Shown here: positions 9,214 through 48,533 of the stretch, piece after piece
Position numbering within the stretch: position 1 is the stretch's first letter
How the letters are laid out: each line of letters starts with the position of its first letter
From: Rhodospirillales bacterium
GTDB lineage: Bacteria; Pseudomonadota; Alphaproteobacteria; BOG-932; Roseiterribacteraceae
NCBI GenBank assembly: GCA_003165335.1
Contig: PLTD01000217.1
Span: forward strand, 6,247-70,246
Length of the DNA: 64,000 nt
Reading direction: 5' to 3'
The notes under the pieces: generated by a model
What the model was told of the DNA's origin: nothing
The model's database searches: none
Seen by the model: only the letters and a program-made list of their open reading frames with translations
Position numbers and translations under genes: made by a program

Positions 9214-9636
9214 TCACTGACCAGTGGCGAGTGCCGCCACACTTCGTTTTTGTCGAATCGCGTTACCTGCAAACTCCAACTGGCGTTTGTCGCCATCATG
9301 GTCGAATGTCCGCCGATCGCGCACAGACATCCCTGCTGCGGCCTCGGCCTGAAACCGAGAGAATTGCGGATAACACATCGGAGCGATCAACGCGGCCGCG
9401 TTATCGACGGCTGCCCCCCCCTGGTCGGCATAGTGCGCAGCTTGGTCGAGGCAGGAAATATACGCTTGCCGGGCCACGGCAGATTCCCTTTCCTCCTCGG
9501 GCGTCAGCGTCGGCGGAGGCGAAGCAGACACGGCGTCCGGCAGGTTCTGTGCATGGTTTTCTGGCGCAAGTGAGGCGCAACCTGCAGTAGCCCCGATAGC
9601 CAGCAAGATGGCAATAAAGCTCAACTGTTTGCGCAT
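9214..9636 (-). CDS. hypothetical lipoprotein
   Basis: 140 aa counted from MRKQLS. It has a lipobox (LAIGATAGC-AS). I recognise no domain. Confidence 0.5.
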   Translation of the reverse strand: MRKQLSFIAILLAIGATAGCASLAPENHAQNLPDAVSASPPPTLTPEEERESAVARQAYISCLDQAAHYADQGGAAVDNAAALIAPMCYPQFSRFQAEAAAGMSVRDRRTFDHDGDKRQLEFAGNAIRQKRSVAALATGQ

Positions 9637-9791
9637 TGTCACCGAACACTCAGCCAATTGAAATAAACGGTGGGATAATCGTCCAGAAATCATGAGTAGG
9701 CCGCACTAAGCCGGCACCATAGAACGCTTGAGCGATAGTCAAGCCAGCCCCAGCGGATCAAACGGAAAGTTCGCATCATGACGCTAAGACT

Positions 9792-9836
9792 AAAACGAAA
9801 ACGCCGCCCCACGGCATAAGAGCCATGGGGCGGCGT
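9792..9836 (-). terminator. rho-independent terminator closing cassette 1
   Basis: The minus-strand RNA reads CGCCGCCCCAUGGC-loop-GCCGUGGGGCGGCG (12 bp, 1 mismatch) followed by UUUUCGUUUU. It lies 20 nt after the stop codon at 9856. Confidence 0.65.
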
Positions 9837-9855: not shown

Positions 9856-11133
9856 TTACGGCAGCACTTCACGCCAATACAGAGCCGATACTGCATCAAT
9901 CGGGTTCTGAGGTATCGCAGGAAGTGTCTTGCCGAGCGAGATGTCAAAATTATCGTGCGACGTCTCATCCCCAGGCTTTTGATCGCCGGTATAAGTGTAG
10001 ATGGCATAGCCCATATACGCCCACTGCGCTCCGCCTTCCTTGCGCTTCATCACACTCCAATAGCCTGATGATTTCGCGTCATCCGGCGCAGACACCGGAA
10101 CCCAGGTCTTGGTGCATTCGCCCGTGCACGTGCTCGTTCCAAGGAACTGGCCCAGCTGAGGTACACCTGCCTGTCCACCGCGCAGGCTGAAACCGCCAAC
10201 CTGAAAATGAAAGCGGTCGCGAGCGTAAACGGTCATGCCCTTCGCATCGGTCAGATAATCCATGCCGCGGACATTGATACCGAACTTCACGTTATCCGGC
10301 TGGAAATACTTTTCAGCCAGAGCAACGTGATAACGCGGGTCGACCATACGGCCCTTGGAGTCGCCGTGCTCCGCATCACCATCGTAGGTATAAAGCGGCG
10401 CGGACTGGTAGGCCCACTGACGTGTGCCGTCAGCTCGGGAAATCGGAGTGAACTCTCCCAGCGTGCTCGCCAATTGCGGAGCCAACAGCGGCGAAAATCC
10501 ATTGTCGCAAGTCGCACCGGGTGCGCAAGCAACCTTGTCGGCTTTGATATCGCCGCTGAAAGCGTAAATCGTGCGCCCCTTAGGATCGACGAAAGCCTGT
10601 CCGCCGGCGGCCACCATCTCCTCGGTCACGATGCCTTCTGGCAGCGGGATGCCATACATGGCGTTGTTAAGAACCCAGTGCCAGGATTCGACCGAGGCTC
10701 CCTTAATGTCTCCCACATTCTTGTCTTGTGCGTAAACGTAAAGCGGCTTGTCGTGCCGGGTCCATTGCTTGGTTCCGTCATCGCGCGTGATGACGCCCCA
10801 AAAGCCCGACGGCTTCGCATCGGCCGGCGCAGCCAACGGGAGGAAGTCTTTGGCGCAATCGCCGACGCAGGAAGATTTACCAGGCTGTGTGTCGTTATCG
10901 GTCGTGTAGATCGTGTGGTGTTTCTCGTTCGTGATGACGGCATAGCCTTTGAACGCGCCCATCGCACTCATCGCATTCTGTGCAGCAACGACGTTGAATG
11001 TAATGCCGACCGGCATTTGCGAAGCTTCAGCGGCTACTGCCTGCTTTTTGACGGTCGGATGAACCGCCTGACTGGCGAGAAAACCAACCATTGCTAAAAC
11101 TGCGACGCCAAGAGCGCCTGTTACGAGCCGCAT
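9856..11133 (-). CDS. COG4315 / Lipoprotein_15 secreted-repeat protein (cassette 1, gene 5)
   Basis: 425 aa from MRLVTG, with a signal segment. Units are repeated: HTIYTTDNDTQPGKSSCVGDCAKDFLPLAAP...WGVITRDDGTKQWTRHDKPLYVYAQDKNVGD; ...CAPGATCDNGFSPLLAP...; ...TSTCTGECTKTWVPVSAP...GGAQWAYMGYAIYTYTGDQKPGD. These match the secreted repeat of unknown function. Confidence 0.7.
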   Translation of the reverse strand: MRLVTGALGVAVLAMVGFLASQAVHPTVKKQAVAAEASQMPVGITFNVVAAQNAMSAMGAFKGYAVITNEKHHTIYTTDNDTQPGKSSCVGDCAKDFLPLAAPADAKPSGFWGVITRDDGTKQWTRHDKPLYVYAQDKNVGDIKGASVESWHWVLNNAMYGIPLPEGIVTEEMVAAGGQAFVDPKGRTIYAFSGDIKADKVACAPGATCDNGFSPLLAPQLASTLGEFTPISRADGTRQWAYQSAPLYTYDGDAEHGDSKGRMVDPRYHVALAEKYFQPDNVKFGINVRGMDYLTDAKGMTVYARDRFHFQVGGFSLRGGQAGVPQLGQFLGTSTCTGECTKTWVPVSAPDDAKSSGYWSVMKRKEGGAQWAYMGYAIYTYTGDQKPGDETSHDNFDISLGKTLPAIPQNPIDAVSALYWREVLP

Positions 11134-11199
11134 TTTACTGCCCTCCCCGACCAATATCCACGAACAACAAGTCAATCATCAAAACACGATTACGATGCA

Positions 11200-11231: not shown

Positions 11232-12569
11232 TCAGACCAGAATTTCGCTGATCGGCTTGGAAGTCGCCAGCGACATCGTTCCCCAGCTATCAACCGGAAC
11301 GCCCAGCGCCTGCTGGATGGTTAGGCCGACCCGAGTTACCGGCTCACCCTTCGCCTGGATGTGCATGCCGGTCTTGATCCGACCACCTGCACCGCCGGCG
11401 ATGAACATCGGAATGTTCTCGAGCGAGTGTACCTTCGCAAAGCCGGTCTCGCTATGCGCCAGCATCAGTGTGCGGTCTAGCAAGGTGCCGTCGCCTTCTT
11501 TGATGCTGTCCAGCGTCTGAAGGTAGAAGGCGAGCGATTCGACGATCCGCACCATGAAGTAAGTCGCATTCGGCTGATAACCCAATACCGGATCCATCGG
11601 CTCTTCATGCGTCGAGATGTGGTGCGTCATGGCGACACCCGGACGACGCAGCGGAGAAGTCGCCTCGCCGAAGACGATGTTCGTTACATGAGTCTGATCG
11701 CAAGCCACGGCGTGCGCCAAAATCTGAGCGAACAGCTTGTGGTTCGCGACAACATTGTCGATCTCGGTGCCTATTTCGGCATCTGTCGGCTGCGCAGACT
11801 TCGAGCAAGCCTCAAGTGGTGCGGGCTTCTGCAACTGAAGATCAAGCTGCTGCTCAAGCTGACGCACGGCGGTAAAATACTCGTCCAAACGCTGACGATC
11901 ATTGACGCCAACCTGTTTCAGCAGGGCTTCGCGCTGATCCGTAACGCCCGACAAAACGCTGCGCCGAACCATAACACGTGGATCGGGCTTAAAGTCAGCC
12001 GCATTGGGGTCGGTGAAGTCCGGCCCGAAGACGCGCGTGTACAGTGCCGCCGGGGAGATTTCCGCCGGGTTTGAAACGCTGGCGCTGCGACGGCTCAGGC
12101 TATCTGTCGGCTTACCTGTTCCCGTCACTTCCAAAGAACGGAAGCGTGTGCGCGTGCCGATAGTGTCGGCTACAATGCTATCCAGACTGGCATAGTTGGG
12201 CTGCTCACGCGGCACATCGCCGGTCAGGATCGCCATTTCGCCGGTGAAGTGCGGGCGGGCACCTTTGCCGTCGAGGAAGACCTTGAAGCCGCTGAGCACA
12301 TTGATGCGGCTCTTGAAGGGCTGAAGCGCCGCACTCTCGATATTCATATCATAATTGGCGCCGATGGTCTTCGGCTCCCATCGACCGGGATTGAGACCGC
12401 AGCCCCAGAAGAAGGTGCTGAAGGCCACAGGCAGCGGCGCGCCGCTAGCCAGAGCCGTACCGTTGGTATTCAGGAAACAATCCAAGAAGGGCAGTCCGAC
12501 GCTCACCGCCGCGCCACCCATCATTCCGCGCAGAACATTTCTGCGGGTTGCGTTCATCGATGCGCTCAT
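11232..12569 (-). CDS. DUF1552 family protein, twin-arginine exported (cassette 1, gene 4)
   Basis: 445 aa. It has a Tat-type N-terminus (TRRNVLRGMMGGAAVSVGLPFLDCFL) and a His-rich motif (MTHHISTHEE). Its start overlaps the upstream stop as ATGA. A clear paralogue lies at 46336-47685. Confidence 0.8.
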   Translation of the reverse strand: MSASMNATRRNVLRGMMGGAAVSVGLPFLDCFLNTNGTALASGAPLPVAFSTFFWGCGLNPGRWEPKTIGANYDMNIESAALQPFKSRINVLSGFKVFLDGKGARPHFTGEMAILTGDVPREQPNYASLDSIVADTIGTRTRFRSLEVTGTGKPTDSLSRRSASVSNPAEISPAALYTRVFGPDFTDPNAADFKPDPRVMVRRSVLSGVTDQREALLKQVGVNDRQRLDEYFTAVRQLEQQLDLQLQKPAPLEACSKSAQPTDAEIGTEIDNVVANHKLFAQILAHAVACDQTHVTNIVFGEATSPLRRPGVAMTHHISTHEEPMDPVLGYQPNATYFMVRIVESLAFYLQTLDSIKEGDGTLLDRTLMLAHSETGFAKVHSLENIPMFIAGGAGGRIKTGMHIQAKGEPVTRVGLTIQQALGVPVDSWGTMSLATSKPISEILV

Positions 12570-14251
12570 TTTACTGCCTCCGTTTGAGTACTCGTCCCCG
12601 CCATAGACAAAGTTGCGTTATTCGCGTCGGTCCCCGGCGTCGAGATCCGATAAAATGCTTTGCTGCTTGCAATCCGTCGCATCAGTTCAGGAACCTTGTA
12701 TCCCGAATTAACGAACTGCTTCGTCTGATAGTTTAGCCATTCGGCCTCATCCTTCGTTCCTGCGCGGCCTGTGCCGAATGCATATAGCCGGTTGACAAGA
12801 CAAACTGGTACAGCCGGATGATCATGAACCGCCTTTGTGAATCCAATCGCGTCACTGAACTTCATGCCGTCGATTTCTCCGTTGGTCTCGATCGCAACAT
12901 CGTTTTCCGTGGTTCGGAAACCGCCTGCAGAATCGAAGTTCTCCATCGCTAGACCGACCGGATCCATGATCTTGTGACAACCCGCGCAAGTCGGCTGGTT
13001 GATATGCGCACCCAGCCGCGAGCGAGCGGTATGGAAGGCAGGATTCTTGGTGTCGTTAACGAGATTGAAATTCACATTGCCTGGTGGGTCAGGGACTTTC
13101 TGGCACAGGAAGACTTGACGCAACGCCTTGCCCCGAATTGTTGGGGAACTGCGACCGGGATGAGAATGCAGCGATACAAAACTGATCTCGGTCAGGATTC
13201 CGGCCCGCGGGTCATTCTCTGCATATTCATGCGGCTCCCACCCTGTGGATGTCATCACCGGCACGCCGTAGACTGACCCCAGTAAGCGCGTGAGATAGGT
13301 TTTGCGCGTCGTGAAGATGTCCCGGTAGTCGCCATTATTAGTAACCAACAGGTCGGTTAGAGTCCGAAGGGTCTGTTCCTGCGCGTCGACCGAAACCTGA
13401 GAACTGTATTTCGGATATATCTGCGGATCTTTCGCCAATGACACGAAACCATCGAATCCGAGCATATCAGAGAAGAACGCACGCACACCCGAAGCGAGAC
13501 GTGGCGAGTTCGTCATACGGTCGACCTGCTTAGCAATGCCGGCGTCCGTATCGAGATCACCCTTCTGCGCTGCCTCAAGCAGGTCGGCATCCGGTGTCGT
13601 GTCCCACAGGAAAAAGCTTAGCCGTGACGCCTTGGAATAAGCGTCAAGACGGCGCTGCCCCGCATTATCGGGATCTGCCTCGGATGCTTCCTGCCTGAAG
13701 AGGAACTGCGGCGAAACCAGCATGGCCCCGACGCTCATTTCCAGGCCCGTATAAAAATTGCCAAGCTTGGACGCCGCTTCGCCGGCATCCTTGACCTGGG
13801 TCTGCAGTTCGTCCTGCGTCATCGGACGACGGAAGAGCATTCTCCCCGTACGAGCAATGAACTTTGTCGCGCAGGCATCGTCGCGGTCATTTGCTTTGGC
13901 CGGCGTGCAGGGAACCAACGTTGTGCGATGCGCATCGTCGACAACCTGGGCAGCAATGCCACGCGCAGTGAGGTCATATTCCTCAAGCCCGGTGCCCGCG
14001 ACGCTTTCTCGCGACGTACCAACTGCGATCAGGCCGTTATCGCGCACATCAGGCTCGAACCGGCCCGGTACCTTGATAGTCGTGCCGAAGACATCGGCGA
14101 CAATCTGCCGATACTCCGGCTCCGTCAGGCGACGCAGTGAAACCGGTCCACCCTTCGTAACAGGCGCATCATCTTTAGGACCGCAACCGGTCAAAGCAAT
14201 TGCGGCTACAAACCCAAGCGCACCGAAAAAGCGCGTCGGAGACTTAGACAT
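12566..14251 (-). CDS. DUF1587/DUF1592/DUF1595/DUF1588/DUF1585 (PSD/PSCyt3-type) lipoprotein with CxxCH motif (cassette 1, gene 3)
   Basis: About 561 aa. It has a lipobox (ALTGC-G), RRLTEPEYRQIVADVFG, CTPAKANDRDDACATKFI...LFRRPMTQDEL, and QPTCAGCHKIMDPVGLAMENFDSAGGFR (CAGCH at 12974-12988). Its ATG shares one nt with the upstream TAA (TAATG); an alternative start is at 14257. Confidence 0.8.
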   Translation of the reverse strand: MSKSPTRFFGALGFVAAIALTGCGPKDDAPVTKGGPVSLRRLTEPEYRQIVADVFGTTIKVPGRFEPDVRDNGLIAVGTSRESVAGTGLEEYDLTARGIAAQVVDDAHRTTLVPCTPAKANDRDDACATKFIARTGRMLFRRPMTQDELQTQVKDAGEAASKLGNFYTGLEMSVGAMLVSPQFLFRQEASEADPDNAGQRRLDAYSKASRLSFFLWDTTPDADLLEAAQKGDLDTDAGIAKQVDRMTNSPRLASGVRAFFSDMLGFDGFVSLAKDPQIYPKYSSQVSVDAQEQTLRTLTDLLVTNNGDYRDIFTTRKTYLTRLLGSVYGVPVMTSTGWEPHEYAENDPRAGILTEISFVSLHSHPGRSSPTIRGKALRQVFLCQKVPDPPGNVNFNLVNDTKNPAFHTARSRLGAHINQPTCAGCHKIMDPVGLAMENFDSAGGFRTTENDVAIETNGEIDGMKFSDAIGFTKAVHDHPAVPVCLVNRLYAFGTGRAGTKDEAEWLNYQTKQFVNSGYKVPELMRRIASSKAFYRISTPGTDANNATLSMAGTSTQTEAVK

Positions 14252-15441
14252 TACCATCCCAACTTCCTCAACCATCCGCCCATATTGGCTTCTTCGACGT
14301 GGCGCACCTGAATGCTACCGCCCGCGTCGGAAACCTTCTTGTCGTTTTTGTCGTCCGTGTGCAGAACGAAAGCCGGCACAGCCTCGACCTCATAGGCGGT
14401 CGAAATCGCCGTGTTCTGCCCCGTCGCATCCGGATAAGCATCTGCATTGCGCTTGAGCGAGTAATACAAAGCCGGCATATCCACCGACGCGCTGTGTTCT
14501 TCGACCCATCCGGACTCGGCATAGCTCCAATAGAGCGCGTACCAATCGTGATACCCGCCCAATATTCCCTTCAGCGTGCCGTCGTCGTTCAACTTCAGCT
14601 TTAAGCGAGCCTGCTTCCAGTTGAACTCTGGAATCAGGAACGGGTCGGCAACGATGCGAATATCGGAAGCATCGGTGGTCAGAACACCGTTCTTGATGCT
14701 GCCATGCAGAACATTATGCGTCCGGGGATCGGGGTCGACCTTGAACGACATGTCGGACCGTACGCCGCCAGTCGTATCACGAGATATGTGATCGACGCCG
14801 CGCGAAATCGTGACCGTAACATTGTCCGAATTTTTCGGGTCTGTGATGCCGCTGATCTCAATCAGCCAAGCCGGCATCTCGTCGCGCAACACGTCCCACT
14901 GGGCCTGCGCCAATGTCGGATGGGCAGGCGGCGGAGCGCGGAAGCTGCGGATACAGCCGAGTGTCCGATAATACTGATTCTTGATGCCTTGTTCACCGGT
15001 ATCGGGATCGGTGAAGGATATCGGCGAGTCAGTTTTGCCGTCGAGGTTGAAACCATATGCAAACTTGCCCTTGATCTCCTTCAGGCCGGGATCGTAGGAC
15101 GATTCAGGATGGGCGTAGACATTCGTTTTTTTGTCTCCGCGCGTACCCATGATCTTGATATATTCGCCATCGGCCCTGCCAGGATTACCCGGAAAGTCCT
15201 TCAACAGCTTCGTCGCATCGGGATCGGAATAGCCGAGCCGAATCAGTTCGCGCTTGTAGAACTCGGTCGACATCGGGTTGAGACCGTCGGGGCAGTCGCT
15301 TTCGTTGCCATAATAGGTCGAAACACCGAACCAACTCACAACGTAGCCGCGGGTTTCGGCCGAAGCATGACCGGCTGCAGTAGCCAGCGCCAAGCCGGCT
15401 ATCACGCCGAGCGACCGCGAATAAGAGTGGAACCGAGTCAT
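14251..15441 (-). CDS. exported protein of unknown family (cassette 1, gene 2)
   Basis: 396 aa from MTRFHS, with RBS GGGAGG upstream and a signal peptide ending AGHASA-ETRG. I recognise no domain. It shares blocks with the ORF at 43540-44688: DCPDGLN, FGFNLDGKTDS, NQYYRxLGC, EFxxKQARLxL, YYxLKRxADxYPD, EAxPAFVLH. Confidence 0.7.
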   Translation of the reverse strand: MTRFHSYSRSLGVIAGLALATAAGHASAETRGYVVSWFGVSTYYGNESDCPDGLNPMSTEFYKRELIRLGYSDPDATKLLKDFPGNPGRADGEYIKIMGTRGDKKTNVYAHPESSYDPGLKEIKGKFAYGFNLDGKTDSPISFTDPDTGEQGIKNQYYRTLGCIRSFRAPPPAHPTLAQAQWDVLRDEMPAWLIEISGITDPKNSDNVTVTISRGVDHISRDTTGGVRSDMSFKVDPDPRTHNVLHGSIKNGVLTTDASDIRIVADPFLIPEFNWKQARLKLKLNDDGTLKGILGGYHDWYALYWSYAESGWVEEHSASVDMPALYYSLKRNADAYPDATGQNTAISTAYEVEAVPAFVLHTDDKNDKKVSDAGGSIQVRHVEEANMGGWLRKLGW

Positions 15442-15488: not shown

Positions 15489-15779
15489 TCAGCTTTTTGC
15501 AGCCCATGAATCACAGTGCCCTTTGGGATTTGCAGGACCACTGAATATCTTGCACGTGCCGCAGCCCTTGTCTCCGTCCGCATCAAAAAAGCCGCAAGCC
15601 GAACAGGTCTTCGTCGTGTCGGAATACTGCTCTGTATAATGCAGCGAGGATCGCAAACTATCCGTCGGGTCAGCGCATGCCTCAGCAGCTTTCGCCAATG
15701 ACGGCAAAAGCGCGAATGCAGGAACCAAAAGTATGCCGCGCTCGATTGCCTCGCGCCGCGAAAGTTTGCCCGCACTCAT
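15489..15779 (-). CDS. high-potential iron-sulfur protein (HiPIP), twin-arginine exported
   Basis: 96 aa. It has a Tat motif (LSRREAIERG) and the mature-domain Cys pattern TCSACGFF...GCGTCKIF...GHCDSWAAK, typical of the HiPIP 4Fe-4S ligand set. Confidence 0.85.
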   Translation of the reverse strand: MSAGKLSRREAIERGILLVPAFALLPSLAKAAEACADPTDSLRSSLHYTEQYSDTTKTCSACGFFDADGDKGCGTCKIFSGPANPKGHCDSWAAKS

Positions 15780-16022
15780 TCGAATCAGCTCCCTTGCTGT
15801 CCCAAAATAGAATTCGCCGAGTCCGACTATGCCTAAAAAGCCAGAACCGGCCGATTGAAACCTAATATGGATATATGCTTTACAAATGTCGAGTCATTTT
15901 ACGGGTGTTCACAAGAATGCTATAGGTTGGCAGTGAGCATCCCATCACTTAGGGTGACTGATCGATATGAGCAGTTCGAGGAGCGATTCGATGGCGGTAC
16001 TGACAATCGAGTTGCCGCATTG

Positions 16023-16628
16023 ATGAACCAAACGAAGCCAATCCCCCTTCGGCGACAGCAGCGCGATTTCACGCGCCAACGTCTGATCGATGCAGCGCGC
16101 GAATTGTTCGTACGCAACGGGACGCGCGCCACTTCAATTGACGATATCGCCAAGGCGGCGGGAACATCTCGCGCGACATTCTATGCCCACTTCACCGACA
16201 AGCAGGATGTAATTCGCGAATTTGCGCGCAGCATGTGGGAAACTGCCTTCGCGGTCTATGAGCGTTTCGGTGCTCTGGGCGAATGGAACCACCAAACAAT
16301 CGGCGGCTGGATGCGTGAGTTGTTCGACGCGTGGGATCGCAACGCCGACACAACCTATATTGTTCTTCAGGAAATGCCGTCCGAGTTGAGGACGGATTTC
16401 CTGGCGCAGATGCAGCATCGCGTAAACGCGTTGATGAGCGACAATCCGCTCTGGAGCCGATTTACCCCCGAAGAAGGACGCCGACGTGCAGCCCTTCTGA
16501 TTTTCCAACTTGAACGCTGTATGGACGCTGCACATTATGGTGGCTGGAAGGAAGACCGTGGCGCGCTTTTCAAGACTCTAGTCGATATATGGGTCGCGAC
16601 CCTTACCAGCGATATGAGCGGCGATTAA
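16023..16628 (+). CDS. TetR/AcrR family transcriptional regulator
   Basis: 201 aa from MNQTKP. The N-terminal HTH reads RLIDAARELFVRNGTRATSIDDIAKAAGTSRATFYAHF. It is divergent from the HiPIP operon across a 243-bp shared region. The maximal ORF from 15855 is unlikely to be used. Confidence 0.85.
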   Translation: MNQTKPIPLRRQQRDFTRQRLIDAARELFVRNGTRATSIDDIAKAAGTSRATFYAHFTDKQDVIREFARSMWETAFAVYERFGALGEWNHQTIGGWMRELFDAWDRNADTTYIVLQEMPSELRTDFLAQMQHRVNALMSDNPLWSRFTPEEGRRRAALLIFQLERCMDAAHYGGWKEDRGALFKTLVDIWVATLTSDMSGD

Positions 16629-17404
16629 AGCAGCTTAATCGAATATCCGCCGTCGATTGTGACGCCTGATCCATTCATAAAATCGGAAGCCCGGCTCGCA
16701 AGAAAGACAGCGATACCGGCAAAATCATCCGGCTGCCCCCAACGTCCGGCCGGCGTGCGCCCCGCAATCATTTCCGGCAAGCCCGGGACTGTCTTGGTGC
16801 TGGCTGTAATGTCGGTTTCGACCCATCCCGGAAGCACGCAGTTTACGTTGATGCCGTCCGGCCCCCATTCGACTGCCAGCGCTTTGCTCAACTGCAAAAC
16901 GCCCCCCTTGCTAGCGCAATAATTCACCGAATAGGCCAATGCCCCCGTAGACGCGAGAGAACCTACATTAATGATCCTCCCACCATGGGGTCGTTCCGCG
17001 CCCGCTCGTTTCAGTTCAGCATAGGCTGCCCTGCACAGCAGAAACATTCCGGTCAGGTTGGTATCGATATCGACGTGCCAATCGTCCAACGACAGTTTCT
17101 CCGCCGAACCATATGCGTGCGCACCCGCATTGTTGACGAGTATGTCCAGCTTTCCAAAGCGCGCGACGGTGTCGGCCACGACCTTTGCCGCAAATGCCTC
17201 TTCGCGGACGTCCCCCTCGATAAATCCGGCTTCAGCGCCCAACTCGGCGAGTTGATGCAAGGCACTCTCGGCTTTTGCTGCGTTGCGCCCCGTGATCATC
17301 ACCTTGGCGCCGGCACCGGCCAGGCCTTTGGCCATGCCCAACCCAATTCCACCGTTGCCGCCGGTCACAACGGCAACACGTCCCGTCAATTCGAAAATGT
17401 TCAT
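16625..17404 (-). CDS. SDR family oxidoreductase (classical, FabG/glucose-1-dehydrogenase-like)
   Basis: 259 aa with VTGGNGGIGLG, NNAG, YCASKGG (YxxxK) and PGWVETD. Confidence 0.85.
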   Translation of the reverse strand: MNIFELTGRVAVVTGGNGGIGLGMAKGLAGAGAKVMITGRNAAKAESALHQLAELGAEAGFIEGDVREEAFAAKVVADTVARFGKLDILVNNAGAHAYGSAEKLSLDDWHVDIDTNLTGMFLLCRAAYAELKRAGAERPHGGRIINVGSLASTGALAYSVNYCASKGGVLQLSKALAVEWGPDGINVNCVLPGWVETDITASTKTVPGLPEMIAGRTPAGRWGQPDDFAGIAVFLASRASDFMNGSGVTIDGGYSIKLL

Positions 17405-17470: not shown

Positions 17471-19477
17471 TTACTCCACAACGATCTCTCCGTAACTCCA
17501 CGGATGATCTTTGCAAATATAGGTATAGGTGCCGGGCTTATCGAATTTCACCGTCCCGCTTTTGCCCGGGGCGACTTCACCCGTCGTCCAAGAGCCATCC
17601 TGCGCCGCAGCGTCGTGGGGCTCTTTTCCGTCATTGGTCCATGTTATCGTTGTCCCGGCTTTGACCTTGATCCGCATCGGTTGGAATACATACTCGTCGG
17701 TAAACTCTGCGTTCTTTATTACCCCGATACTCTTCACTGTCGCGGACATCGCCACATGATCGGTCGATACGACGCGCCCTGCGAATTCGCTGTCTGTTTG
17801 CGGCGGCGGCGGAGCAGATGCCGCGGCTATAGTTCCGCCTAAAGCGAAACTCCAAACCTTATTGGTTGCCGTAATCGCAACATACTGTTTACCGGCGACT
17901 TCATAAGTAATGGCTGGAGCTGTCGCCGCGCCACCTGTCTGAAACTGCCAAACTATATCACCGGTCTTGGCGTTATAGGCCTGAAACTGACCGTCTGGTT
18001 CACCGTGAAAAAGCAGATTACCGGCAGTGGCCGTGGTCCCGCTACCGAAAGCGATCGGGTAGGGAGTCTTTTTCTGCCAGGCGATCTTGCCGGTACGGCT
18101 GTCCAAAGCCGCCATGATCCCGTAACTCTTCATCCCTGGTACACTTGGCAACGTGAAAAAATATGGATCTTCGCCGCGGCGTATCCAATGCCCACCGGAC
18201 ATGCCTGTAACATACAGGAGGCCGGAATCGGGGTTGTAGGACATCGGTGCAAAGCGCGTTGACGTCGGGAAGACCAAGTTGGGCTGATCGTAATTCACAG
18301 GATCCCAGTAACAACCTGCTTTGAAACCAGGCGGGATTAGATCGGGCTCGACACAATTTGGCCCGACCTTATCGACACCGACGGAATAGGGCTGGGTCGG
18401 GGCCGTTGCGAGCCGCTTATCCTGCTTAACCGCTCGCTCTTCGACCGGGATAATGGGCATGCCTGTACCGCGGTCCAGTACAAACAACTCACCGTCCGTC
18501 CGCAGCACAGCGATCGCCTTGCGCGTCTTGCCATTATAAACCTGATCAAAAAGAACCAAGGGTGTGCCAAGGTCACCCTCCCAAATGTCGTGATGCAACG
18601 CCTGGAAGTGCCATTTCTCTTTGCCGGTTTTGATGTCGAGCGCGACCGCGGTTGCAGTGTAGAGGTTATCTCCAGGACGGACCTCGCCTCCGTATTGGGG
18701 AGAGGCATTGCTCGTGCCGAAATAGACCAATCCCAAAACTGGATCGACCGACGGGTTCATCCAGACCCCCGCACCGCCGTTTTTCCAAGCATCGTTGTCG
18801 GCTGGCCAAGTATCGTGACCCGCCTCTCCCGGGAGCGGAATCGTGTTGAATTGCCAGATGAGTTTGCCGGTCTTTGCATCTAGAGCAACGAATCGTCCCT
18901 TGATGCCTGCGTCGCCGCTGGCGAGCCCGACCATCACTTTCCCATCGGCGTAAGTCGGTGCGGCAGAAACGAACATTCCGAACCGCGCAGGACCATCACC
19001 GATATAAGTTGTCCAAGCGACCGCACCGGTTTTTTCGTCCAGCGCCGATACGCTGCCGTCGGTGAGTCCAAAATAGACTTTCCCGCCGCCGACCGCCAAT
19101 CCGCGATTGCGTGCATCGATGCCTGGACCTGTAGGGAGATAGCTCCATTTGACGGTGCCGTTTGCCGCGTCCAAGGCAGTAACGTGACCGCCTGCGGCAG
19201 CGACGAACATCAGCCCGTCAGCTACCACCGGCGGCCCCTTGGATTGCTCATCCTTCAGGTCGAAATTCCACGCAGCGCCAAGAGTTTTTACATTGTCGCC
19301 GTTGATCTGACTCAGGGTGGAAAAACGTGTATTGCCGAACGAACCACCATGCAGCGGCCATTCATTGGACGCCTGCTCAAATTTCGCGGAGCTCGACGGA
19401 GCCGCCTCGGCATATATGCCAAGACCAATGGCAACTGACGTCGCAGCGCAGGCTGACAAGATGTTTCGATACCGCAT
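17471..19477 (-). CDS. PQQ-dependent dehydrogenase (8-bladed propeller) fused to a C-terminal amicyanin-like cupredoxin domain
   Basis: 668 aa from MRYRNILS, with a signal peptide. The PQQ-dehydrogenase N-terminus reads WPLHGGSFGNTRFSTLSQINGDNVKTLGAAW, followed by GDNLYTATAVALDIKTGKEKWHFQALHHDIWEGD. The last ~100 aa (VKAGTTITWTNDGKEPHD...GTYTYICKDHPWSYGEIVVE) align with amicyanin (VKVGDTVTWINREAMPHN...GTYDYHCTPHPFMRGKVVVE). The 944-aa maximal ORF is an artefact that overlaps the kinase gene. Confidence 0.8.
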   Translation of the reverse strand: MRYRNILSACAATSVAIGLGIYAEAAPSSSAKFEQASNEWPLHGGSFGNTRFSTLSQINGDNVKTLGAAWNFDLKDEQSKGPPVVADGLMFVAAAGGHVTALDAANGTVKWSYLPTGPGIDARNRGLAVGGGKVYFGLTDGSVSALDEKTGAVAWTTYIGDGPARFGMFVSAAPTYADGKVMVGLASGDAGIKGRFVALDAKTGKLIWQFNTIPLPGEAGHDTWPADNDAWKNGGAGVWMNPSVDPVLGLVYFGTSNASPQYGGEVRPGDNLYTATAVALDIKTGKEKWHFQALHHDIWEGDLGTPLVLFDQVYNGKTRKAIAVLRTDGELFVLDRGTGMPIIPVEERAVKQDKRLATAPTQPYSVGVDKVGPNCVEPDLIPPGFKAGCYWDPVNYDQPNLVFPTSTRFAPMSYNPDSGLLYVTGMSGGHWIRRGEDPYFFTLPSVPGMKSYGIMAALDSRTGKIAWQKKTPYPIAFGSGTTATAGNLLFHGEPDGQFQAYNAKTGDIVWQFQTGGAATAPAITYEVAGKQYVAITATNKVWSFALGGTIAAASAPPPPQTDSEFAGRVVSTDHVAMSATVKSIGVIKNAEFTDEYVFQPMRIKVKAGTTITWTNDGKEPHDAAAQDGSWTTGEVAPGKSGTVKFDKPGTYTYICKDHPWSYGEIVVE

Positions 19478-19702
19478 ATCCCCCCCCGAGTCCGGCCGAT
19501 TATTCCATGAACAACAGTTCATATATCGCCTTGCCCGAGACCAATACACACAATCATCGACGAGCCAAAGTGGTTGTTGTCGTGATCCCTCCGATTGCGG
19601 GAACGGCACGGTGGATGATAGTTTCCGATCAGCTATGAAATTTATCGCGCAGGTGACGAAACTCACCTTCAGAGCAATCTTTCTCCGACTGGCAAAGAGT
19701 TC

Positions 19703-42337: not shown

Positions 42338-42480
42338 TCCTGCAGCCCTTGATCTATCTCATCGTCTCAGCGTTCCGCGACATATTCAATCTTGCGCTTG
42401 AAGCGGGCTTCTCTTGCGTCTTTTCTTGAGCCGGATTACGCCCATTGTTTAATGCGGGTCCAAGGACCGAAGAGGACATC

Positions 42481-43539: not shown

Positions 43540-44688
43540 ATGGCACGATTGAATTCGATCTTCTGTTCGGCGGCGGCGATGGCCGGCTTGCTGGCTCTTG
43601 GCGCGAACGCCTCGGCGGGTGAGGCCAAGGGCTTTGCGGTCACTTGGTTCCAGCCTGCCATGTACACGGCCGACGACGATTGCCCGGATGGCCTCAACAA
43701 ATCGCCTGATTTCAAAGCGATCTTCGCGGCTGAGGGCAAGACGCCTGAACAGATCAAGGATCTGATCGACCATCCCAATTCCAAGGAATTCGCCGACGCC
43801 GTAATCAATCGCGGTCCACACGGCGAGAATGTCTGCGCCGACCCGGCCTCGGCTCCCGACCCGGGCCAAAAGACGGTACAGGGTAAGATTGCTTTCGGCT
43901 TCAACCTCGATGGCAAGACCGATTCGGGCAGCACGCCTGCGCCCAACACCTGCGCACATGCCAAATTCACAAGCCCTGATGGAACGCCCGGCATCGACAA
44001 CCAGCATTATCGGGCTCTCGGCTGCATGATCGCGCTTCGCGGAAAACGCGGCCACGACGGGTTCGTGCTCAGCTACATCATGGAGCGGATGAAAGCCGAG
44101 GGCCTGCGGACCTATCTTATCGAGATCAAGGGAATAAATGATCCGAAAGACAATAAGGATGTTGAGGTCGGCGTCTATCTCGGCAGCGACCCTTTGGTAC
44201 TGGACGCCAAAGGCGAAGTCCGTCGCGACACGACGCAGCGGGTCAGTAAGGATGTACGCTGGCACAATGTTGTCCACGGCTCGATGAAGGACGGCGTCAT
44301 CACGACCGACGTCTTTGACCTGAACCTGCTGGGCGACCCAATCTGGGTGCCGGAGTTTCATTTCAAGCAGGCCAGGCTACAGCTTACGGTTCAACCGAAC
44401 GGAGACATCAAAGGTACGCTGGGCGGCTACCAGGATGTCATGACGATGTACTACAACACCGTGAAGTCCGGTATTTTGTTTGAGACGACCAACGCGGCCT
44501 CGTGCCCGGGCGTCTATTACGCGCTGAAAAGGCTGGCGGACGGATATCCCGACCCTAAGACGGGCGAGTGCACACAAATTTCCACCGATTTCAATATCGA
44601 GGCGATCCCGGCCTTCGTGCTGCATCAGCCCGGTGACACCGGAAAGACCAAGACAGCCCAAGCGACGCCCGCAGGCCATCAGGACTAG
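43540..44688 (+). CDS. exported protein of unknown family (cassette 2, gene 1; paralogue of 14251-15441)
   Basis: 382 aa from MARLNS, with RBS GGGAGGGG and a signal peptide ending ANASAG-EAKG. It shares conserved blocks with the cassette 1 protein. The 416-aa maximal ORF start is unlikely. Confidence 0.7.
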   Translation: MARLNSIFCSAAAMAGLLALGANASAGEAKGFAVTWFQPAMYTADDDCPDGLNKSPDFKAIFAAEGKTPEQIKDLIDHPNSKEFADAVINRGPHGENVCADPASAPDPGQKTVQGKIAFGFNLDGKTDSGSTPAPNTCAHAKFTSPDGTPGIDNQHYRALGCMIALRGKRGHDGFVLSYIMERMKAEGLRTYLIEIKGINDPKDNKDVEVGVYLGSDPLVLDAKGEVRRDTTQRVSKDVRWHNVVHGSMKDGVITTDVFDLNLLGDPIWVPEFHFKQARLQLTVQPNGDIKGTLGGYQDVMTMYYNTVKSGILFETTNAASCPGVYYALKRLADGYPDPKTGECTQISTDFNIEAIPAFVLHQPGDTGKTKTAQATPAGHQD

Positions 44689-44689
44689 C

Positions 44690-46339
44690 ATGAACAGAGT
44701 TTTAAAATTCGGCGTCGCAGCTGCGTTCGTCCTCGGCACGCTCGTCAGTTGCGGCAACAACGACGAACCGCAGTCTTCCGGCGGGCCTATCGTGGTCAGG
44801 CGGCTGACTCAAGAGCAATATCAGACGATCATTGCGGATATATTCGGCGCGGATATTAAGATCGGCGGCAGGTTCGAACCCGATCTACGCAAATCCGGAC
44901 TGCTCGCGATCGGAGCCGGTGAGGTCAGCGTTACACCGGCCGGCTTCGAGCAATATGACAGCATGGCGCGCGGTGCTGCCGGTCAGATCGTGGACGAACA
45001 GCACCGCGACATGCTGATCGGTTGTAAACCGGCGTCAGTGAAGGCGCCCGACGAGACATGCGCCAAATCCTTCTATTCCAAAGTCGGACGCCTCCTCTAC
45101 AGACGTCCCTTAACTGCGGACGAGCTCAACGCCCAACTGGCGATAGCCGATGCCGCCACTGTGAAACTCGGCAACTTCTATACCGGTCTGGCGATGGGCC
45201 TAACCGGGATGCTGGAAGCGCCGCAGTTCCTGTTTCGCCGCGAAGTCGCAGAAGCCGACCCCGACAATGCGGGACAACAGCGGCTGAACGCCTTTTCAAA
45301 GGCCACACGCCTCAGCTTTTTTCTATGGAACACCACGCCGGACGATGAGTTGTTGACCGCCGCCGAGAACGGCGATCTCAATTCGTCACGGGGGTTGGCC
45401 CGTCAAGCCGACCGCCTTATGGCTTCGCCCCGCCTCACCGCGGGAGCACGCGCTTTCTTCAACGATATGATGGGGTTCGACGCCTTCGCAGACCTGTCGA
45501 AAGACACGACGATCTATCCCAAGTTCACCAACGCCGTCATCGCTGACGCGCAGGAGCAGACCCTGCGAACAATCACGGACCATCTGCTGGTCGCAAAAGG
45601 TGACTACCGTGACCTCTTCACGACACGTAAAACATTCATGACGCCGCTGCTGGGAACGATTTATCGCGTGCCGGTTGAAACCCATGAAGGTTGGGAGGCA
45701 CATGAGTTTCCGGCAGACGATCCACGAGCCGGCCTACTGACACAAATCAGCTTCTTGTCGCTCCATTCCACGCCTGGCCGCAGTTCGCCCACAATCCGCG
45801 GCAAAGCGCTTCGTGAAGTTCTGCTTTGCGAAAAAGTGCCGGATCCGCCAGGCAACGTGAACTTCAATCTGGTTCAGGATACCAAGAACCCGCAATACCG
45901 CACAGCGCGGGCCCGGCTCAGCGCCCACGCGATCCAGGCCACCTGTAAGGGCTGCCACCGGCTGATCGACCCGATGGGGCTGGGGTTGGAGCAGTTCGAT
46001 TCGCTGGGCGAGTACCGCCCAACCGAAAACGAAACACCGATTGATGCCTCGGGTGAATTGGACGGAGTGAAATTCACCGACGCCGCCAGTCTCGGCCGCG
46101 CGCTGCACGACAATCCGGCTACGGCGTCCTGTCTGGTCAACAGGCTGTATGCCTATGCTGCTGGGCGCGCTGCGGGCAAGGGCGAGGCCGATTGGATGAA
46201 GTATCTCGACACCAGCTTCGCTGCCGATGGCTATCGTCTGCCCGCTCTGATGCACCGCATTGTGACCAGCGAAGCATTCTATCGGATTGCCGCTCCAGAA
46301 ACGGCCGCAGTCAGCTCAACCAAGGAGAGCGCTCAATGA
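44690..46339 (+). CDS. DUF1587/1592/1595/1588/1585 (PSD/PSCyt3-type) lipoprotein with CxxCH motif (cassette 2, gene 2)
   Basis: 549 aa from MNRVLK with a lipobox (LVSC-G), RRLTQEQYQTIIADIFG, LYRRPLTADEL, and QATCKGCHRLIDPMGLGLEQFDSLGEYR (CKGCH at 45944-45958). It starts 1 nt after the upstream TAG. Confidence 0.8.
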   Translation: MNRVLKFGVAAAFVLGTLVSCGNNDEPQSSGGPIVVRRLTQEQYQTIIADIFGADIKIGGRFEPDLRKSGLLAIGAGEVSVTPAGFEQYDSMARGAAGQIVDEQHRDMLIGCKPASVKAPDETCAKSFYSKVGRLLYRRPLTADELNAQLAIADAATVKLGNFYTGLAMGLTGMLEAPQFLFRREVAEADPDNAGQQRLNAFSKATRLSFFLWNTTPDDELLTAAENGDLNSSRGLARQADRLMASPRLTAGARAFFNDMMGFDAFADLSKDTTIYPKFTNAVIADAQEQTLRTITDHLLVAKGDYRDLFTTRKTFMTPLLGTIYRVPVETHEGWEAHEFPADDPRAGLLTQISFLSLHSTPGRSSPTIRGKALREVLLCEKVPDPPGNVNFNLVQDTKNPQYRTARARLSAHAIQATCKGCHRLIDPMGLGLEQFDSLGEYRPTENETPIDASGELDGVKFTDAASLGRALHDNPATASCLVNRLYAYAAGRAAGKGEADWMKYLDTSFAADGYRLPALMHRIVTSEAFYRIAAPETAAVSSTKESAQ

Positions 46340-47685
46340 ATTCCAACGCGCGCATGAACCGCCGCACCATCCTGCGTGGGATGTTAGGGGGCGCGGCAGT
46401 CAGCATGGGAATGCCGCTGCTCGATTGTTTTCTCAACACTAACGGCACGGCGCTGGCGTCCGGTGCGCCGCTGCCGGTCAGGTTCGGAACCTGGTTTTGG
46501 GGCTGCGGCCTTAACCCCGGCCGTTGGATTCCGCAGAAGATTGGAACCGACTACGATATGCCGGCCGAGATTAAAGTCTTGGCTCCATACAAGGACCGGC
46601 TCAGCGTTTTCAGCGGATTCAAGGCAATCGTCGACGGGAAGCCGGCCGTTGTCCACTATACGGGGTCGATGAGCATCCTGACCGGATCAGCTCCTAAGGA
46701 CATGCAGTCGGTCGAGGCGCCGACGATGGATACGTTCATTTCCGACGCAATCGGATCGACCACCCGATTCCGGTCCCTGGAACTCGCAGCCACCGGCAAC
46801 CCACGCGACAGCAACAGCCGCCGCAGCTCCAGCGTCATCAATCCGGCAGAAGGCTCACCTCTCGCTTTTTATACGCGGTTGTTCGGCCCGGACTTCAAAG
46901 ACCCCAACGCCGCTGATTTCGTGCCCGACCCCGCTGTGATGGTTCGCCAAAGCGTACTGTCGGCGGTAACCGAACAGCGCCAAACAATTCTTGCTGGGCT
47001 CGGCTCGGCCGATAAGGCGCGCATGGATCAGTACTTCACCTCGGTACGGCAACTCGAACAACAGCTTGCCCTGCAATTGCAAAAGCCCGCCCCGCTGGAG
47101 GCATGCACCAAACCGGGTCAACCAAGCTGGAGCGAGACCAAGGAAAACACCCAGATCGACGTCGTTACCGCCAACCACAAGCTGATGGCCGGTCTATTGG
47201 CCCAGGCATTGGCCTGCGACCAGACAAGGGTCTTCAATATGGCCTTCGGCGACGCGACCTCATCGTTGCGCAAAGCGGGCAGCACGGTGACCCATCATCA
47301 GCTGACTCACGAGGAACCGATCGACGAAAAGCTCGGCTATCAACCGGAGGCCACCTTCTTCGTCGACCGGATTATGGAGGGTTTGCTGACGATGGTGACA
47401 GCGTTGGATTCGGTTAAGGAAGGCGATGGCACTCTCCTCGACCACACTTTGATGCTCGCTCACAGCGAATGCAGCTATGCCAAGATCCACTCGCTTGAGA
47501 CCCTTCCAATGTTTATAGCCGGCCGAGCCGGCGGGAAGATCAAGAGCGGCCTGCATATCGACGGCAATGGCGATTCCGTGACCCGCGTCGGCCTCACGAT
47601 ACAGCAAGCCCTTGGGCTGCCACTGAACAAATGGGGCACTGGGTCGATGGAAACGTCCAAAACCGTCGGCGAGATCATGGCGTGA
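46336..47685 (+). CDS. DUF1552 family protein, twin-arginine exported (cassette 2, gene 3)
   Basis: 449 aa from MNSNARMNRRTILRGMLGGAAVSMGMPLLDCFL, with VTHHQLTHEE. Its start overlaps the upstream stop as ATGA, the same junction as in cassette 1. Confidence 0.8.
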   Translation: MNSNARMNRRTILRGMLGGAAVSMGMPLLDCFLNTNGTALASGAPLPVRFGTWFWGCGLNPGRWIPQKIGTDYDMPAEIKVLAPYKDRLSVFSGFKAIVDGKPAVVHYTGSMSILTGSAPKDMQSVEAPTMDTFISDAIGSTTRFRSLELAATGNPRDSNSRRSSSVINPAEGSPLAFYTRLFGPDFKDPNAADFVPDPAVMVRQSVLSAVTEQRQTILAGLGSADKARMDQYFTSVRQLEQQLALQLQKPAPLEACTKPGQPSWSETKENTQIDVVTANHKLMAGLLAQALACDQTRVFNMAFGDATSSLRKAGSTVTHHQLTHEEPIDEKLGYQPEATFFVDRIMEGLLTMVTALDSVKEGDGTLLDHTLMLAHSECSYAKIHSLETLPMFIAGRAGGKIKSGLHIDGNGDSVTRVGLTIQQALGLPLNKWGTGSMETSKTVGEIMA

Positions 47686-47720: not shown

Positions 47721-48533
47721 ATGCGAAGGATTTTGCTGACGAGCGCAATCGCCGTCGGGTTGTTCACTGCCGGCGGCGCGGGTGCCGATACATCTGTCGC
47801 GCCGGACAATTCAGCAACAGCCCCCGGCGTCATTACGACCCAACTCGTTCCCGGTGGCGCGGTCTTGGCCGACGTGATGGGCCACACGATCTATACGTAC
47901 GACCGGGACACCAAACCTGGAAAATCGTCCTGCATCGAAGCCTGCGCCCAGGATTGGAAGCCGCTTCCCGCCGCTTGGCTCGCCAATCCAGCGGGCGACT
48001 GGTCGGTCATCACCCGCGAAGACGGCAGCAGACAATGGGGATATAAGGGTAAGCCGCTTTATACGTTTTCGGGCGACCACAAGGCGGGCGATACGAACGG
48101 CGAGGGTGCTGACAATAGCTGGCGCGCGGTCGTCACCGCCCGAAAGTTCCTGCCTCCCAAGGTTGCGATCTGGCACAGCGATTTCGGTCCGGCCTTTGCG
48201 ACAACGGATGGCAAAACTCTTTATGTCCTCGCGGAATTGCACTTCAACCCATTAGGCACGAAACGACACACCGGCCCCAATATCGGCCTGACGGATTGCA
48301 CCGCTGAATGCACGAAGACTTGGGTTCCGTTCAAAGCCCCCGCTGACGCTGTGGCGGCGGAGGACTGGTCGATCGTCACGCGCGACGACGGGACCCGGCA
48401 ATGGGCCTATAAGGACTGGCCGGTCTACACAAATGTGCAGGATTCGAAGGCCGGGGACACGCTTGGCGAAGGTATAAGCACTCTTAAGACAGGAATTACC
48501 GGCCTGTCCTGGCAAGTGGCCACCCTGCTCTAG
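47721..48533 (+). CDS. COG4315 / Lipoprotein_15 secreted-repeat protein (cassette 2, gene 4)
   Basis: 270 aa from MRRILL, with a signal peptide. It has two repeat pairs: HTIYTYDRDTKPGKSSCIEACAQDWKPLPA...DGSRQWGYKGKPLYTFSGDHKAGD and ...TDCTAECTKTWVPFKAP...DGTRQWAYKDWPVYTNVQDSKAGD. Confidence 0.7.
   Translation: MRRILLTSAIAVGLFTAGGAGADTSVAPDNSATAPGVITTQLVPGGAVLADVMGHTIYTYDRDTKPGKSSCIEACAQDWKPLPAAWLANPAGDWSVITREDGSRQWGYKGKPLYTFSGDHKAGDTNGEGADNSWRAVVTARKFLPPKVAIWHSDFGPAFATTDGKTLYVLAELHFNPLGTKRHTGPNIGLTDCTAECTKTWVPFKAPADAVAAEDWSIVTRDDGTRQWAYKDWPVYTNVQDSKAGDTLGEGISTLKTGITGLSWQVATLL

Follow-up and report, generated by a model that had tools for sequence, protein, structure and literature searches.

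An unnamed family of exported proteins encoded ahead of DUF1592/DUF1552 gene pairs in Rhodospirillales and other proteobacteria

In this study, we followed up a 64,000-nucleotide stretch from a Rhodospirillales bacterium (assembly GCA_003165335.1, contig PLTD01000217.1, positions 6,247 to 70,246 of the forward strand; hereafter the window), in which two gene cassettes, A and B, each contain a gene for an exported protein of a family without a name, here referred to as X. The two paralogues, X_A (the gene originally flagged) and X_B, are each encoded ahead of a DUF1592-type haem lipoprotein, a DUF1552 protein with a twin-arginine translocation (Tat) signal, and a repeat protein of the Lipoprotein_15 family. 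X is a member of a large, unnamed and undescribed family, where "undescribed" refers to the absence of database models and names, and it very probably works as a dedicated part of a complex formed in the periplasm with the haem lipoprotein and the repeat protein. More tentatively, and just short of calling it probable, we propose that X is a peripheral, exchangeable subunit which has an intrinsic polar pocket for a small ligand or cofactor and serves the conserved cytochrome/DUF1552 core.

The gene order around X is conserved. One genome per species was scanned, giving 78 loci, and together with the genome of the window 98 X copies were located by tblastn with the cassette proteins of the window. 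Among the 86 copies with at least 2.2 kb of downstream sequence, the next gene encodes a DUF1592 protein in 68, a Lipoprotein_15 protein in four, a DUF1552 protein in one, and another X or something else in 13. Where at least 5.5 kb was available (75 copies), X leads the order X, DUF1592-type haem lipoprotein, Tat-DUF1552, Lipoprotein_15 in 60 copies; it is followed by DUF1592 and DUF1552 without Lipoprotein_15 in seven, by Lipoprotein_15 only in two, by DUF1552 and Lipoprotein_15 in one, and by none of the three partners in five. DUF1592 and DUF1552 genes are thus both found downstream, in conserved adjacency and orientation, in 67 of the 75. The genome of the window contains 11 X copies and nine DUF1592/DUF1552 pairs, and X stands ahead of all nine. 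The original prediction, which regarded X as an obligate partner of the CxxCH lipoprotein, is strongly supported, as a rule, with regard to the partnership, given the next-gene counts, the nine pairs and the fusions described below, but "obligate" is too strong, since some copies have Lipoprotein_15 only or no partner at all and only one of five sampled genomes with DUF1592 carries X. Nor do the homologues always adjoin DUF1592/DUF1552 genes. The gene junctions in both cassettes would fit the predicted translational coupling to the lipoprotein gene: the X_A stop and the likely ATG of the haem lipoprotein gene (14251) overlap by one base in TAATG, and the X_B stop lies 1 nt from the next ATG.

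Genes for HiPIP-like iron-sulfur proteins are found just upstream of eight and downstream of five of the 98 X copies. Of the X copies without partners, those of L048 and L053 follow a metallophosphoesterase gene, that of L066 directly follows a TonB receptor gene, and those of L009 and L026 lie beside major facilitator superfamily transporter genes; at L048:5190-6770 and L053:673-1761 the gene immediately upstream is a calcineurin-like metallophosphoesterase. Pairs of X and Lipoprotein_15 without the core lie amid unrelated housekeeping genes, and in L071 such pairs occur in tandem among tryptophan and molybdopterin genes.

X is also found fused to its partners. Seven fusions of X with Lipoprotein_15 and two with the DUF1592 domain set were present in the 150 best representative clusters, and a search for longer proteins gave ten long forms, six with DUF1592 and four with Lipoprotein_15, one of the latter being already among the 150 clusters. 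In all, eight clusters join X to DUF1592 (P0132, P0149, P0277-P0280, P0282, P0283) and ten join it to Lipoprotein_15 (P0128, P0133, P0144, P0175, P0180, P0258, P0269, P0281, P0284, P0285), always with X at the N-terminus. The five linkers examined contain no internal signal peptide, hydrophobic signal or lipobox, and these proteins therefore look like true fusions rather than read-through. Lipoprotein_15, with more fusion clusters, is at least as close a partner of X as DUF1592.

In the 61 full cassettes, X and Lipoprotein_15 have mean pairwise identities of 0.417 and 0.391, against 0.551 for DUF1592, and X is less conserved than DUF1592 in 98% of cassette pairs. Among the 21 pairs within the genome of the window, the values are 0.377 (X), 0.378 (Lipoprotein_15), 0.567 (DUF1592) and 0.458 (DUF1552). 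Furthermore, five adjacent X-X pairs at four loci, 49-79% identical, stand ahead of partner genes that are each present once. It is X that is duplicated in tandem within the cassette, and its sequence changes faster than that of the haem protein. In one locus of the window's genome (G000:C4:26153-34400), three tandem X genes that are 77-79% identical precede one DUF1592-DUF1552-Lipoprotein_15 set.

Both X genes of the window are found where they had been predicted, with every sequence block listed for them. X_A and X_B are 41% identical over 348 residues by BLASTP (E 3e-84), a similarity far above chance. The longest frame of X_A extends to 15507, but the ATG at 15441 is preferred because homologues and a ribosome-binding site (GGGAGG) favour it; a site of the GGGAGG type precedes the ATG of X_B as well. 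As read by eye, both N-termini are basic and hydrophobic and end in AxA or AxG before the motif E-x-(R/K)-G-(Y/F)-x-V-x-W-F, from which a Sec signal and export are predicted. The two proteins have in common the blocks DCPDGLN, GFNLDGKTDS, GIxNQxYRxLGC, LIEIxGIxDPK, HNVxHGSxKxGVxTTD, PEFxxKQARLxL, LGGY, YYxLKRxADxYPD and EAxPAFVLH.

The family has no recognisable domain, in agreement with the original prediction. Neither X_A nor X_B matches any Pfam or NCBIfam family at E<=0.1, and searches of the PDB by sequence and with a 43-sequence profile gave chance-level rows only. A word-indexed search returned 505 relatives, of which the best 120 have no Pfam domain and, wherever a name is given, are called "hypothetical". 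With the X alignment, a full HMMER search yielded 1261 clusters (50% identity) at E<=1e-3, including 400 at E<=1e-30. In the ESM Atlas, all clusters returned were unnamed and belonged to the X family itself; its named search gave an "Hcp" cluster with a score of 0.75, below the lead threshold of the tool. A relation to type VI Hcp was rejected because an Hcp-like stretch is found in P0236 only, N-terminal to the X domain, where it follows a signal peptide and scores 23.4 bits against the Pfam cut-off of 23.5. Two family members, P0236 (573 aa) and P0202 (552 aa), are extended at the N-terminus by about 190-220 residues that follow a signal peptide. No Pfam carbohydrate-binding module (CBM) matches X, and there is none among the Foldseek and VIA rows listed. 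Since the family is invisible to current annotation, it merits a name and a profile.

The residues conserved in X form a well-defined set. In 94 complete copies, at least 95% identity is found at F38, C50, G53, R101, G102, P112, D117, G125, G130, L133, D134, P146, G152, G162, C163, G296, P323, A333, D334, P337, D338, G341, I346, S347 and A357, and 90-95% at N55, N132, N155, W182, Y297, Y304, E315, Y326, T340 and N343, among others. The least variable blocks are 101-110, 131-160, 291-300 and 321-350, and the most variable are 71-100, 161-190, 211-220, 261-280 and 301-320. The conservation of cysteines that had been pointed out from two sequences thus extends to the family at C50 and C163; since X is an exported protein and 56 of the 94 copies have just these two cysteines, the sequences point to a C50-C163 disulfide. 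Twelve invariant polar residues (R101, D117, N132, D134, N155, E315, Y326, Y327, D334, D338, N343, S347) make up a constellation in the insert described below and the C-terminal helix-loop. Ten X copies without DUF1592, including some with Lipoprotein_15 only or without any partner, were checked: 14 of 24 sites, among them nine of the 12 putative pocket residues, are kept in all ten, and N132 and N155 each vary. Because they are retained in copies without DUF1592, the kept residues serve X itself and not only docking to DUF1592.

AlphaFold2 gave a confident model for the X alignment, with a predicted local distance difference test score (pLDDT) of 85.1 and a predicted template modelling score (pTM) of 0.81. 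It consists of a strand (29-40), an insert of helices and loops (about 41-190), further strands (192-299), helices (300-332) and closing strands (335-360). Thus, X is predicted to adopt a small up-and-down beta-barrel, perhaps of the avidin/lipocalin kind, with an insert of about 150 residues between strands 1 and 2. Foldseek found nothing in the PDB at E<=1e-3 with the whole model. The VIA matches were all small up-and-down barrels at Z below 8, a level which the tool takes as a common arrangement: Cap15 (7n34_A, Z 7.7, root-mean-square deviation [rmsd] 4.1, 98 aligned), OmpW (2f1t_A, Z 6.9) and avidins (Z 6.0-6.7), the avidins and lipocalin-like proteins together scoring Z 5-6.9 over about 100 residues at an rmsd of about 4 Å. 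For the insert alone, the best Foldseek E-value was 1.9 and the best VIA Z was 3.6, over a three-helix piece. When the insert was folded alone (51 sequences), pLDDT was 71.3 and its residues 89-104, 107-109 and 114-121 fell below 50. These correspond to residues 127-159 of the full protein, which are confident in the full model but poor in the lone insert, and this suggests that the conserved loops at 127-159 pack against the barrel. Together with the 1261 clusters and the cover of the gene by RNA-library contigs, the confident model agrees with the earlier statement that X is a folded, selected protein.

Based on these results, the following scheme may be envisaged. X would be a Sec-exported, disulfide-stabilised periplasmic protein whose insert packs onto the barrel, and its docking partners would be the DUF1592-type haem lipoprotein, contacted on its N-terminal side, and the Lipoprotein_15 repeat protein. 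Its conserved pocket may bind a small ligand, which could be a substrate, a metal or a redox cofactor, and X may pass this ligand, or its electrons, to the cytochrome/Tat-DUF1552 core. Soluble carriers, for example HiPIP or cytochrome c', could in turn exchange electrons with the core. Physical contact, pocket, ligand and direction of electron flow are all inferred here.

Several points weigh against such a ligand-binding subunit. X is not tied to the core, as five of 75 copies have no partner within 6.5 kb and two have Lipoprotein_15 only, and the correlations of identity between X and its partners are modest (0.46 with DUF1592, 0.45 with Lipoprotein_15). No binding-protein family matches X, neither by Foldseek at E<=1e-3 nor by VIA, with best Z values of 7.7 (whole model) and 3.6 (insert). 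The "pocket" is deduced from conservation and pLDDT only. In addition, a polar set that is invariant across paralogues of 38-42% identity is more easily explained by a catalytic or cofactor site than by a substrate site varying from cassette to cassette. This last point leads to the main rival, unlikely in our view but the strongest of the alternatives, that X itself is a catalytic or cofactor-bearing redox subunit, with the Asp/Asn/Arg/Tyr cluster as an active or metal/cofactor site and with X as electron donor to the DUF1592 haem, a role presumably played in long DUF1592 proteins by the fused PQQ-type GSDH. The polar constellation, at least 90-95% identical in 94 copies and invariant across diverged paralogues, would be expected of an active site, and nine of its 12 residues (not N132 and N155) persist in all ten partner-poor copies. 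Moreover, the N-terminal position is filled by a GSDH dehydrogenase (E 3.4e-40) and cytochrome c in proteins without X, X can stand alone, and the electron carriers HiPIP and cytochrome c' accompany the cassette. However, no enzyme family matches X by sequence or fold, and beyond the presumed disulfide pair there is no conserved His, Cys or Met for haem, copper or iron-sulfur clusters. The rate of evolution of X also equals that of the repeat protein and exceeds that of the core, and its multiplication in tandem without the other genes is more typical of specificity subunits.

Alternatively, X may primarily be the partner of Lipoprotein_15, the two forming an autonomous unit that is often recruited to DUF1592/DUF1552 operons, with the adjacency to the cytochrome being secondary. 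The ten fusion clusters with Lipoprotein_15 against eight with DUF1592, the pairs without the core (including the tandem pairs of L071) and the equally fast evolution of the two proteins are in line with this. We consider it rather improbable as a separate explanation, since seven of 75 copies have DUF1592 and DUF1552 but no Lipoprotein_15 match, cytochrome c' takes its place in G124 (see below), and two genes lie between X and Lipoprotein_15 in 60 of 75 cassettes; it also overlaps with, rather than excludes, a complex of X with both proteins. Least probable of all is that X is a chaperone, carrier or scaffold that assembles or stabilises the lipoprotein or the Tat enzyme without a ligand of its own. 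Although X is encoded first, overlaps the start of the lipoprotein gene and has a barrel-plus-helices shape that fits carrier proteins, it is fused to partners which have lost the lipobox, keeps its polar site without a nearby partner gene, and is duplicated and diverging. The absence of a carrier-type fold from the top 50 VIA rows is a further, though weak, argument against such a factor.

The closest known setting is the PSCyt3/PSD and DUF1552 gene pairs of Planctomycetes and Verrucomicrobia, which are known merely as sets of domains without an assigned function. In 67 of 75 copies X is encoded with just such a pair, but it lies outside the pair as described and has no Pfam model, and the pair occurs without X in four of the five DUF1592-positive genomes among 300. 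According to the consulted part of PMC5615132, PSCyt3 genes usually adjoin a family of unknown genes and their function is unknown. The papers found on DUF1592-type cytochromes and DUF1552 proteins give no function in the sections consulted (including PMC5615132 and PMC8981238), and those on PF03640/COG4315/SCO0930 contain no functional statement in the sections consulted (including PMC8078820).

A small barrel N-terminal to a cytochrome has a precedent in Cellvibrio japonicus. In the portion of PMC8981238 consulted, Cbp2D is described as a protein with CBM2, a YceI-like ubiquinone-binding barrel, cytochrome c and DUF1587 that is needed for growth on cellulose, and X183 as able to reduce lytic polysaccharide monooxygenases. 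The X158/YceI-like ubiquinone-8-binding barrel of the exported Cbp2D/Cbp2E is a small beta-barrel N-terminal to cytochrome c and DUF1587 (PMC8981238, same portion), and X holds the equivalent relative position in operons and fusions; it differs by the 150-residue insert, which is not reported for those domains in the text consulted. A relation to YceI at the sequence level was rejected: PF04264 has matches in five of 14 control genomes but none in the genome of the window with its 11 X copies. The 50 best VIA rows for the X model include no YceI structure; the modelled barrel is up-and-down, and YceI is defined by an 8-stranded antiparallel barrel around an isoprenoid or quinone. The CBM26, GSDH and immunoglobulin (Ig)-like modules of long DUF1592 proteins likewise sit N-terminal to the PSD/PSCyt3 set, with a DUF1552 gene following. 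Such proteins without X carry three CBM26 domains, GSDH and cytochrome c (L081), Ig-like domains, a weak GSDH and cytochrome c (L080), or DUF2231 and PSCyt1 (L079), each with a DUF1552 gene next. In fusions X occupies the same N-terminal place, although it bears no sequence or fold relation to these modules and is usually a separate polypeptide. Judged by these modules and Cbp2D, X occupies the place taken elsewhere by binding or redox modules. As for the fold, the calycins (avidin/lipocalin) and other 8-stranded barrels (the Cap15 receptor barrel, OmpW) are the best structural matches to the barrel core of X, but besides the low Z scores their identity is 1-20%, and none of them covers the insert.

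A conceptual likeness exists to the polysaccharide utilisation loci (PULs) of Bacteroidota, where SusD-like proteins are exchangeable substrate-binding components of multi-copy loci. Many diverged X cassettes are present per genome (11 to 25 matches in 2.6-5.2 Mb), and it is the peripheral component X that is fast-evolving and duplicated. X is, however, not known to be homologous to SusD and has no general link to TonB-dependent receptors: in three genomes, X matches within 10 kb of a Plug domain numbered 0 of 22, 2 of 25 and 8 of 24, against about 5%, 11% and 16% expected. Extending this likeness, one may speculate, as a doubtful reading, that X and Lipoprotein_15 recognise the substrate or cofactor, as interchangeable subunits, in a new kind of multi-copy periplasmic "oxidative utilisation locus". 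A cassette would then consist of a conserved haem lipoprotein and Tat enzyme plus a diverged X/Lipoprotein_15 set, and through each cassette the respiratory chain would receive the electrons of a different compound derived from peat or plants; X would found a new class of ligand-binding fold, a barrel with a disulfide-stapled insert and an Asp/Asn-rich pocket. If true, the function of the very large DUF1592/DUF1552 families would for the first time become accessible to experiment. In bacteria of soil, fresh water and the sea, the DUF1592-type cytochromes and DUF1552 proteins make up gene-pair families of very large size, and X, a compact, soluble, single-domain protein, is linked genetically to this pair in several proteobacterial lineages, where about ten to more than twenty profile matches are found per genome. 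Should ligand or cofactor binding turn out to be the task of X, the target of the system could be revealed by the binding partner of X or by a ligand-bound structure.

X is unevenly distributed. Among 300 other genomes sampled across the phylum, PF07631 (DUF1592) was found in five and X in one. This genome, G124, the only one sampled with both, has the order X, a 562-aa DUF1592 protein, DUF1552 and cytochrome c', and three of the remaining four DUF1592 genomes, which were examined, have long DUF1592 proteins (1098-2157 aa) without X. The G124 locus (L082, G124:C1:190500-201500) lies in a complete-looking 3.7-Mb genome and consists of a single cassette followed by cytochrome c' and glyoxalase-family genes, without Lipoprotein_15, and with two TetR genes upstream. 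In the small order of the window, X is found in nine of 11 genomes with 4-16 matches each, and two near-complete genomes of a third genus of this order have none; five genomes reached via loci have 1, 11, 22, 24 and 25 matches in 2.6-4.7 Mb, all these being profile matches and not exact copy numbers. According to record titles, X carriers include uncultured Rhodospirillales, other Alphaproteobacteria, Steroidobacteraceae, other Gammaproteobacteria, and metagenome-assembled genomes labelled Marinimicrobia. A divergent subfamily (G305:C2:26606-30985 and elsewhere), which includes four tandem copies, matches the profile from about 110 to 375 only, the first half of the insert being missing or unrecognisable. 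In G301, G302, G304 and G305, about a fifth of X matches contain one in-frame stop (TAA, TAG or TGA); these may be pseudogenes, assembly errors or overrun of gene ends.

The X_A gene is present in 20 public runs from 17 studies, six of them RNA libraries, and all organism labels given are peat or permafrost. Parts of each of the five genes of the cassette A operon are covered by contigs (at least 99% identical) from four metatranscriptome runs of peat or permafrost, which bridge the X/DUF1592 junction in three runs and the HiPIP/X junction in one; 16018-16700 is not covered by contigs of these four runs. X_A is thus a real gene covered by metatranscriptome contigs, but RNA-library contigs can contain DNA and carry-over is possible, which tempers what they add to the proposed role.

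The features of the two cassettes are collected in Table 1.

Table 1. Positions in the window of the X genes, the regions of X_A and the other cassette features
Feature	Position	Strand	Remarks
X_A, flagged gene	14251..15441	-	396-aa exported protein, unnamed family
X_A signal peptide (predicted)			residues 1-28
X_A beta-barrel (predicted)			residues about 29-40 and 192-360
X_A Cys50-Cys163 insert	14872-15327		residues 39-190
X_B, paralogue	43540..44688	+	382 aa, 41% identical to X_A, four extra Cys
HiPIP-like iron-sulfur protein	15489..15779	-	twin-arginine SRREAIERG; PF01355 E 1.2e-4, 22.7 bits against cut-off of 22
Cassette A haem lipoprotein	12566..14251	-	PSD3-PSD5-PSD4-PSCyt3-PSD2 (DUF1587/1595/1592/1588/1585); lipobox LTGC; CAGCH
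Cassette A DUF1552 (HXXSHH) protein	11232..12569	-	Tat motif TRRNVLRG; start overlaps preceding stop
Cassette A Lipoprotein_15 (PF03640) repeat protein	9856..11175	-	likely start ATG 11133
Terminator-like hairpin	9801..9836	-	15 pairs, 12 G-C, then T-run; 20 nt past last gene of cassette A
Cassette B haem lipoprotein, DUF1592 type	44690..46339	+	ATG 1 nt after X_B stop
Cassette B DUF1552 protein	46336..47685	+	Tat motif NRRTILRG
Cassette B Lipoprotein_15 repeat protein	47721..48533	+	longest frame starts 47631
TetR-family regulator	15855..16628	+	divergent from HiPIP-X_A operon

X had been said to head both cassettes, which is not strictly so in cassette A, as the Tat-signal HiPIP gene lies 47 nt upstream of X_A on the same strand; it has no counterpart in cassette B. 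The TetR gene is a possible regulator of the HiPIP-X_A operon, and TetR genes adjoin the cassette in G124 too. Promoter and terminator counts in the region were not above those of shuffles, and only the 15-pair hairpin stands out. PDB sequence searches with the three partner proteins gave no match.

Other genes lie close to the cassettes. A 944-aa frame, counted from its first start (17471-20305, minus strand), 2 kb from cassette A, has Pfam matches from residue 316 to a pyrroloquinoline quinone (PQQ)-dependent dehydrogenase propeller and a C-terminal cupredoxin/plastocyanin-like domain. An association of the cassettes with PQQ dehydrogenases was rejected: the window's genome has 36 PF01011 matches, counted as about 20 PQQ-dehydrogenase genes, and two of its nine cassettes lie within 10 kb of one, which is near chance by a rough estimate. 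Open reading frames (ORFs) of 458 aa (40961-42337, minus strand) and 159 aa (9214-9693, minus strand) adjoin the cassettes and have no Pfam match, and a 283-aa ORF upstream of X_B (42445-43296, plus strand) weakly resembles Coq4 (E 1.9e-4, short of the cut-off). About 7 kb past the right end of the window, the same contig carries a third cassette of X, DUF1592 and DUF1552 (G000:C140:77411-81542), in which tblastn gave no Lipoprotein_15 match.

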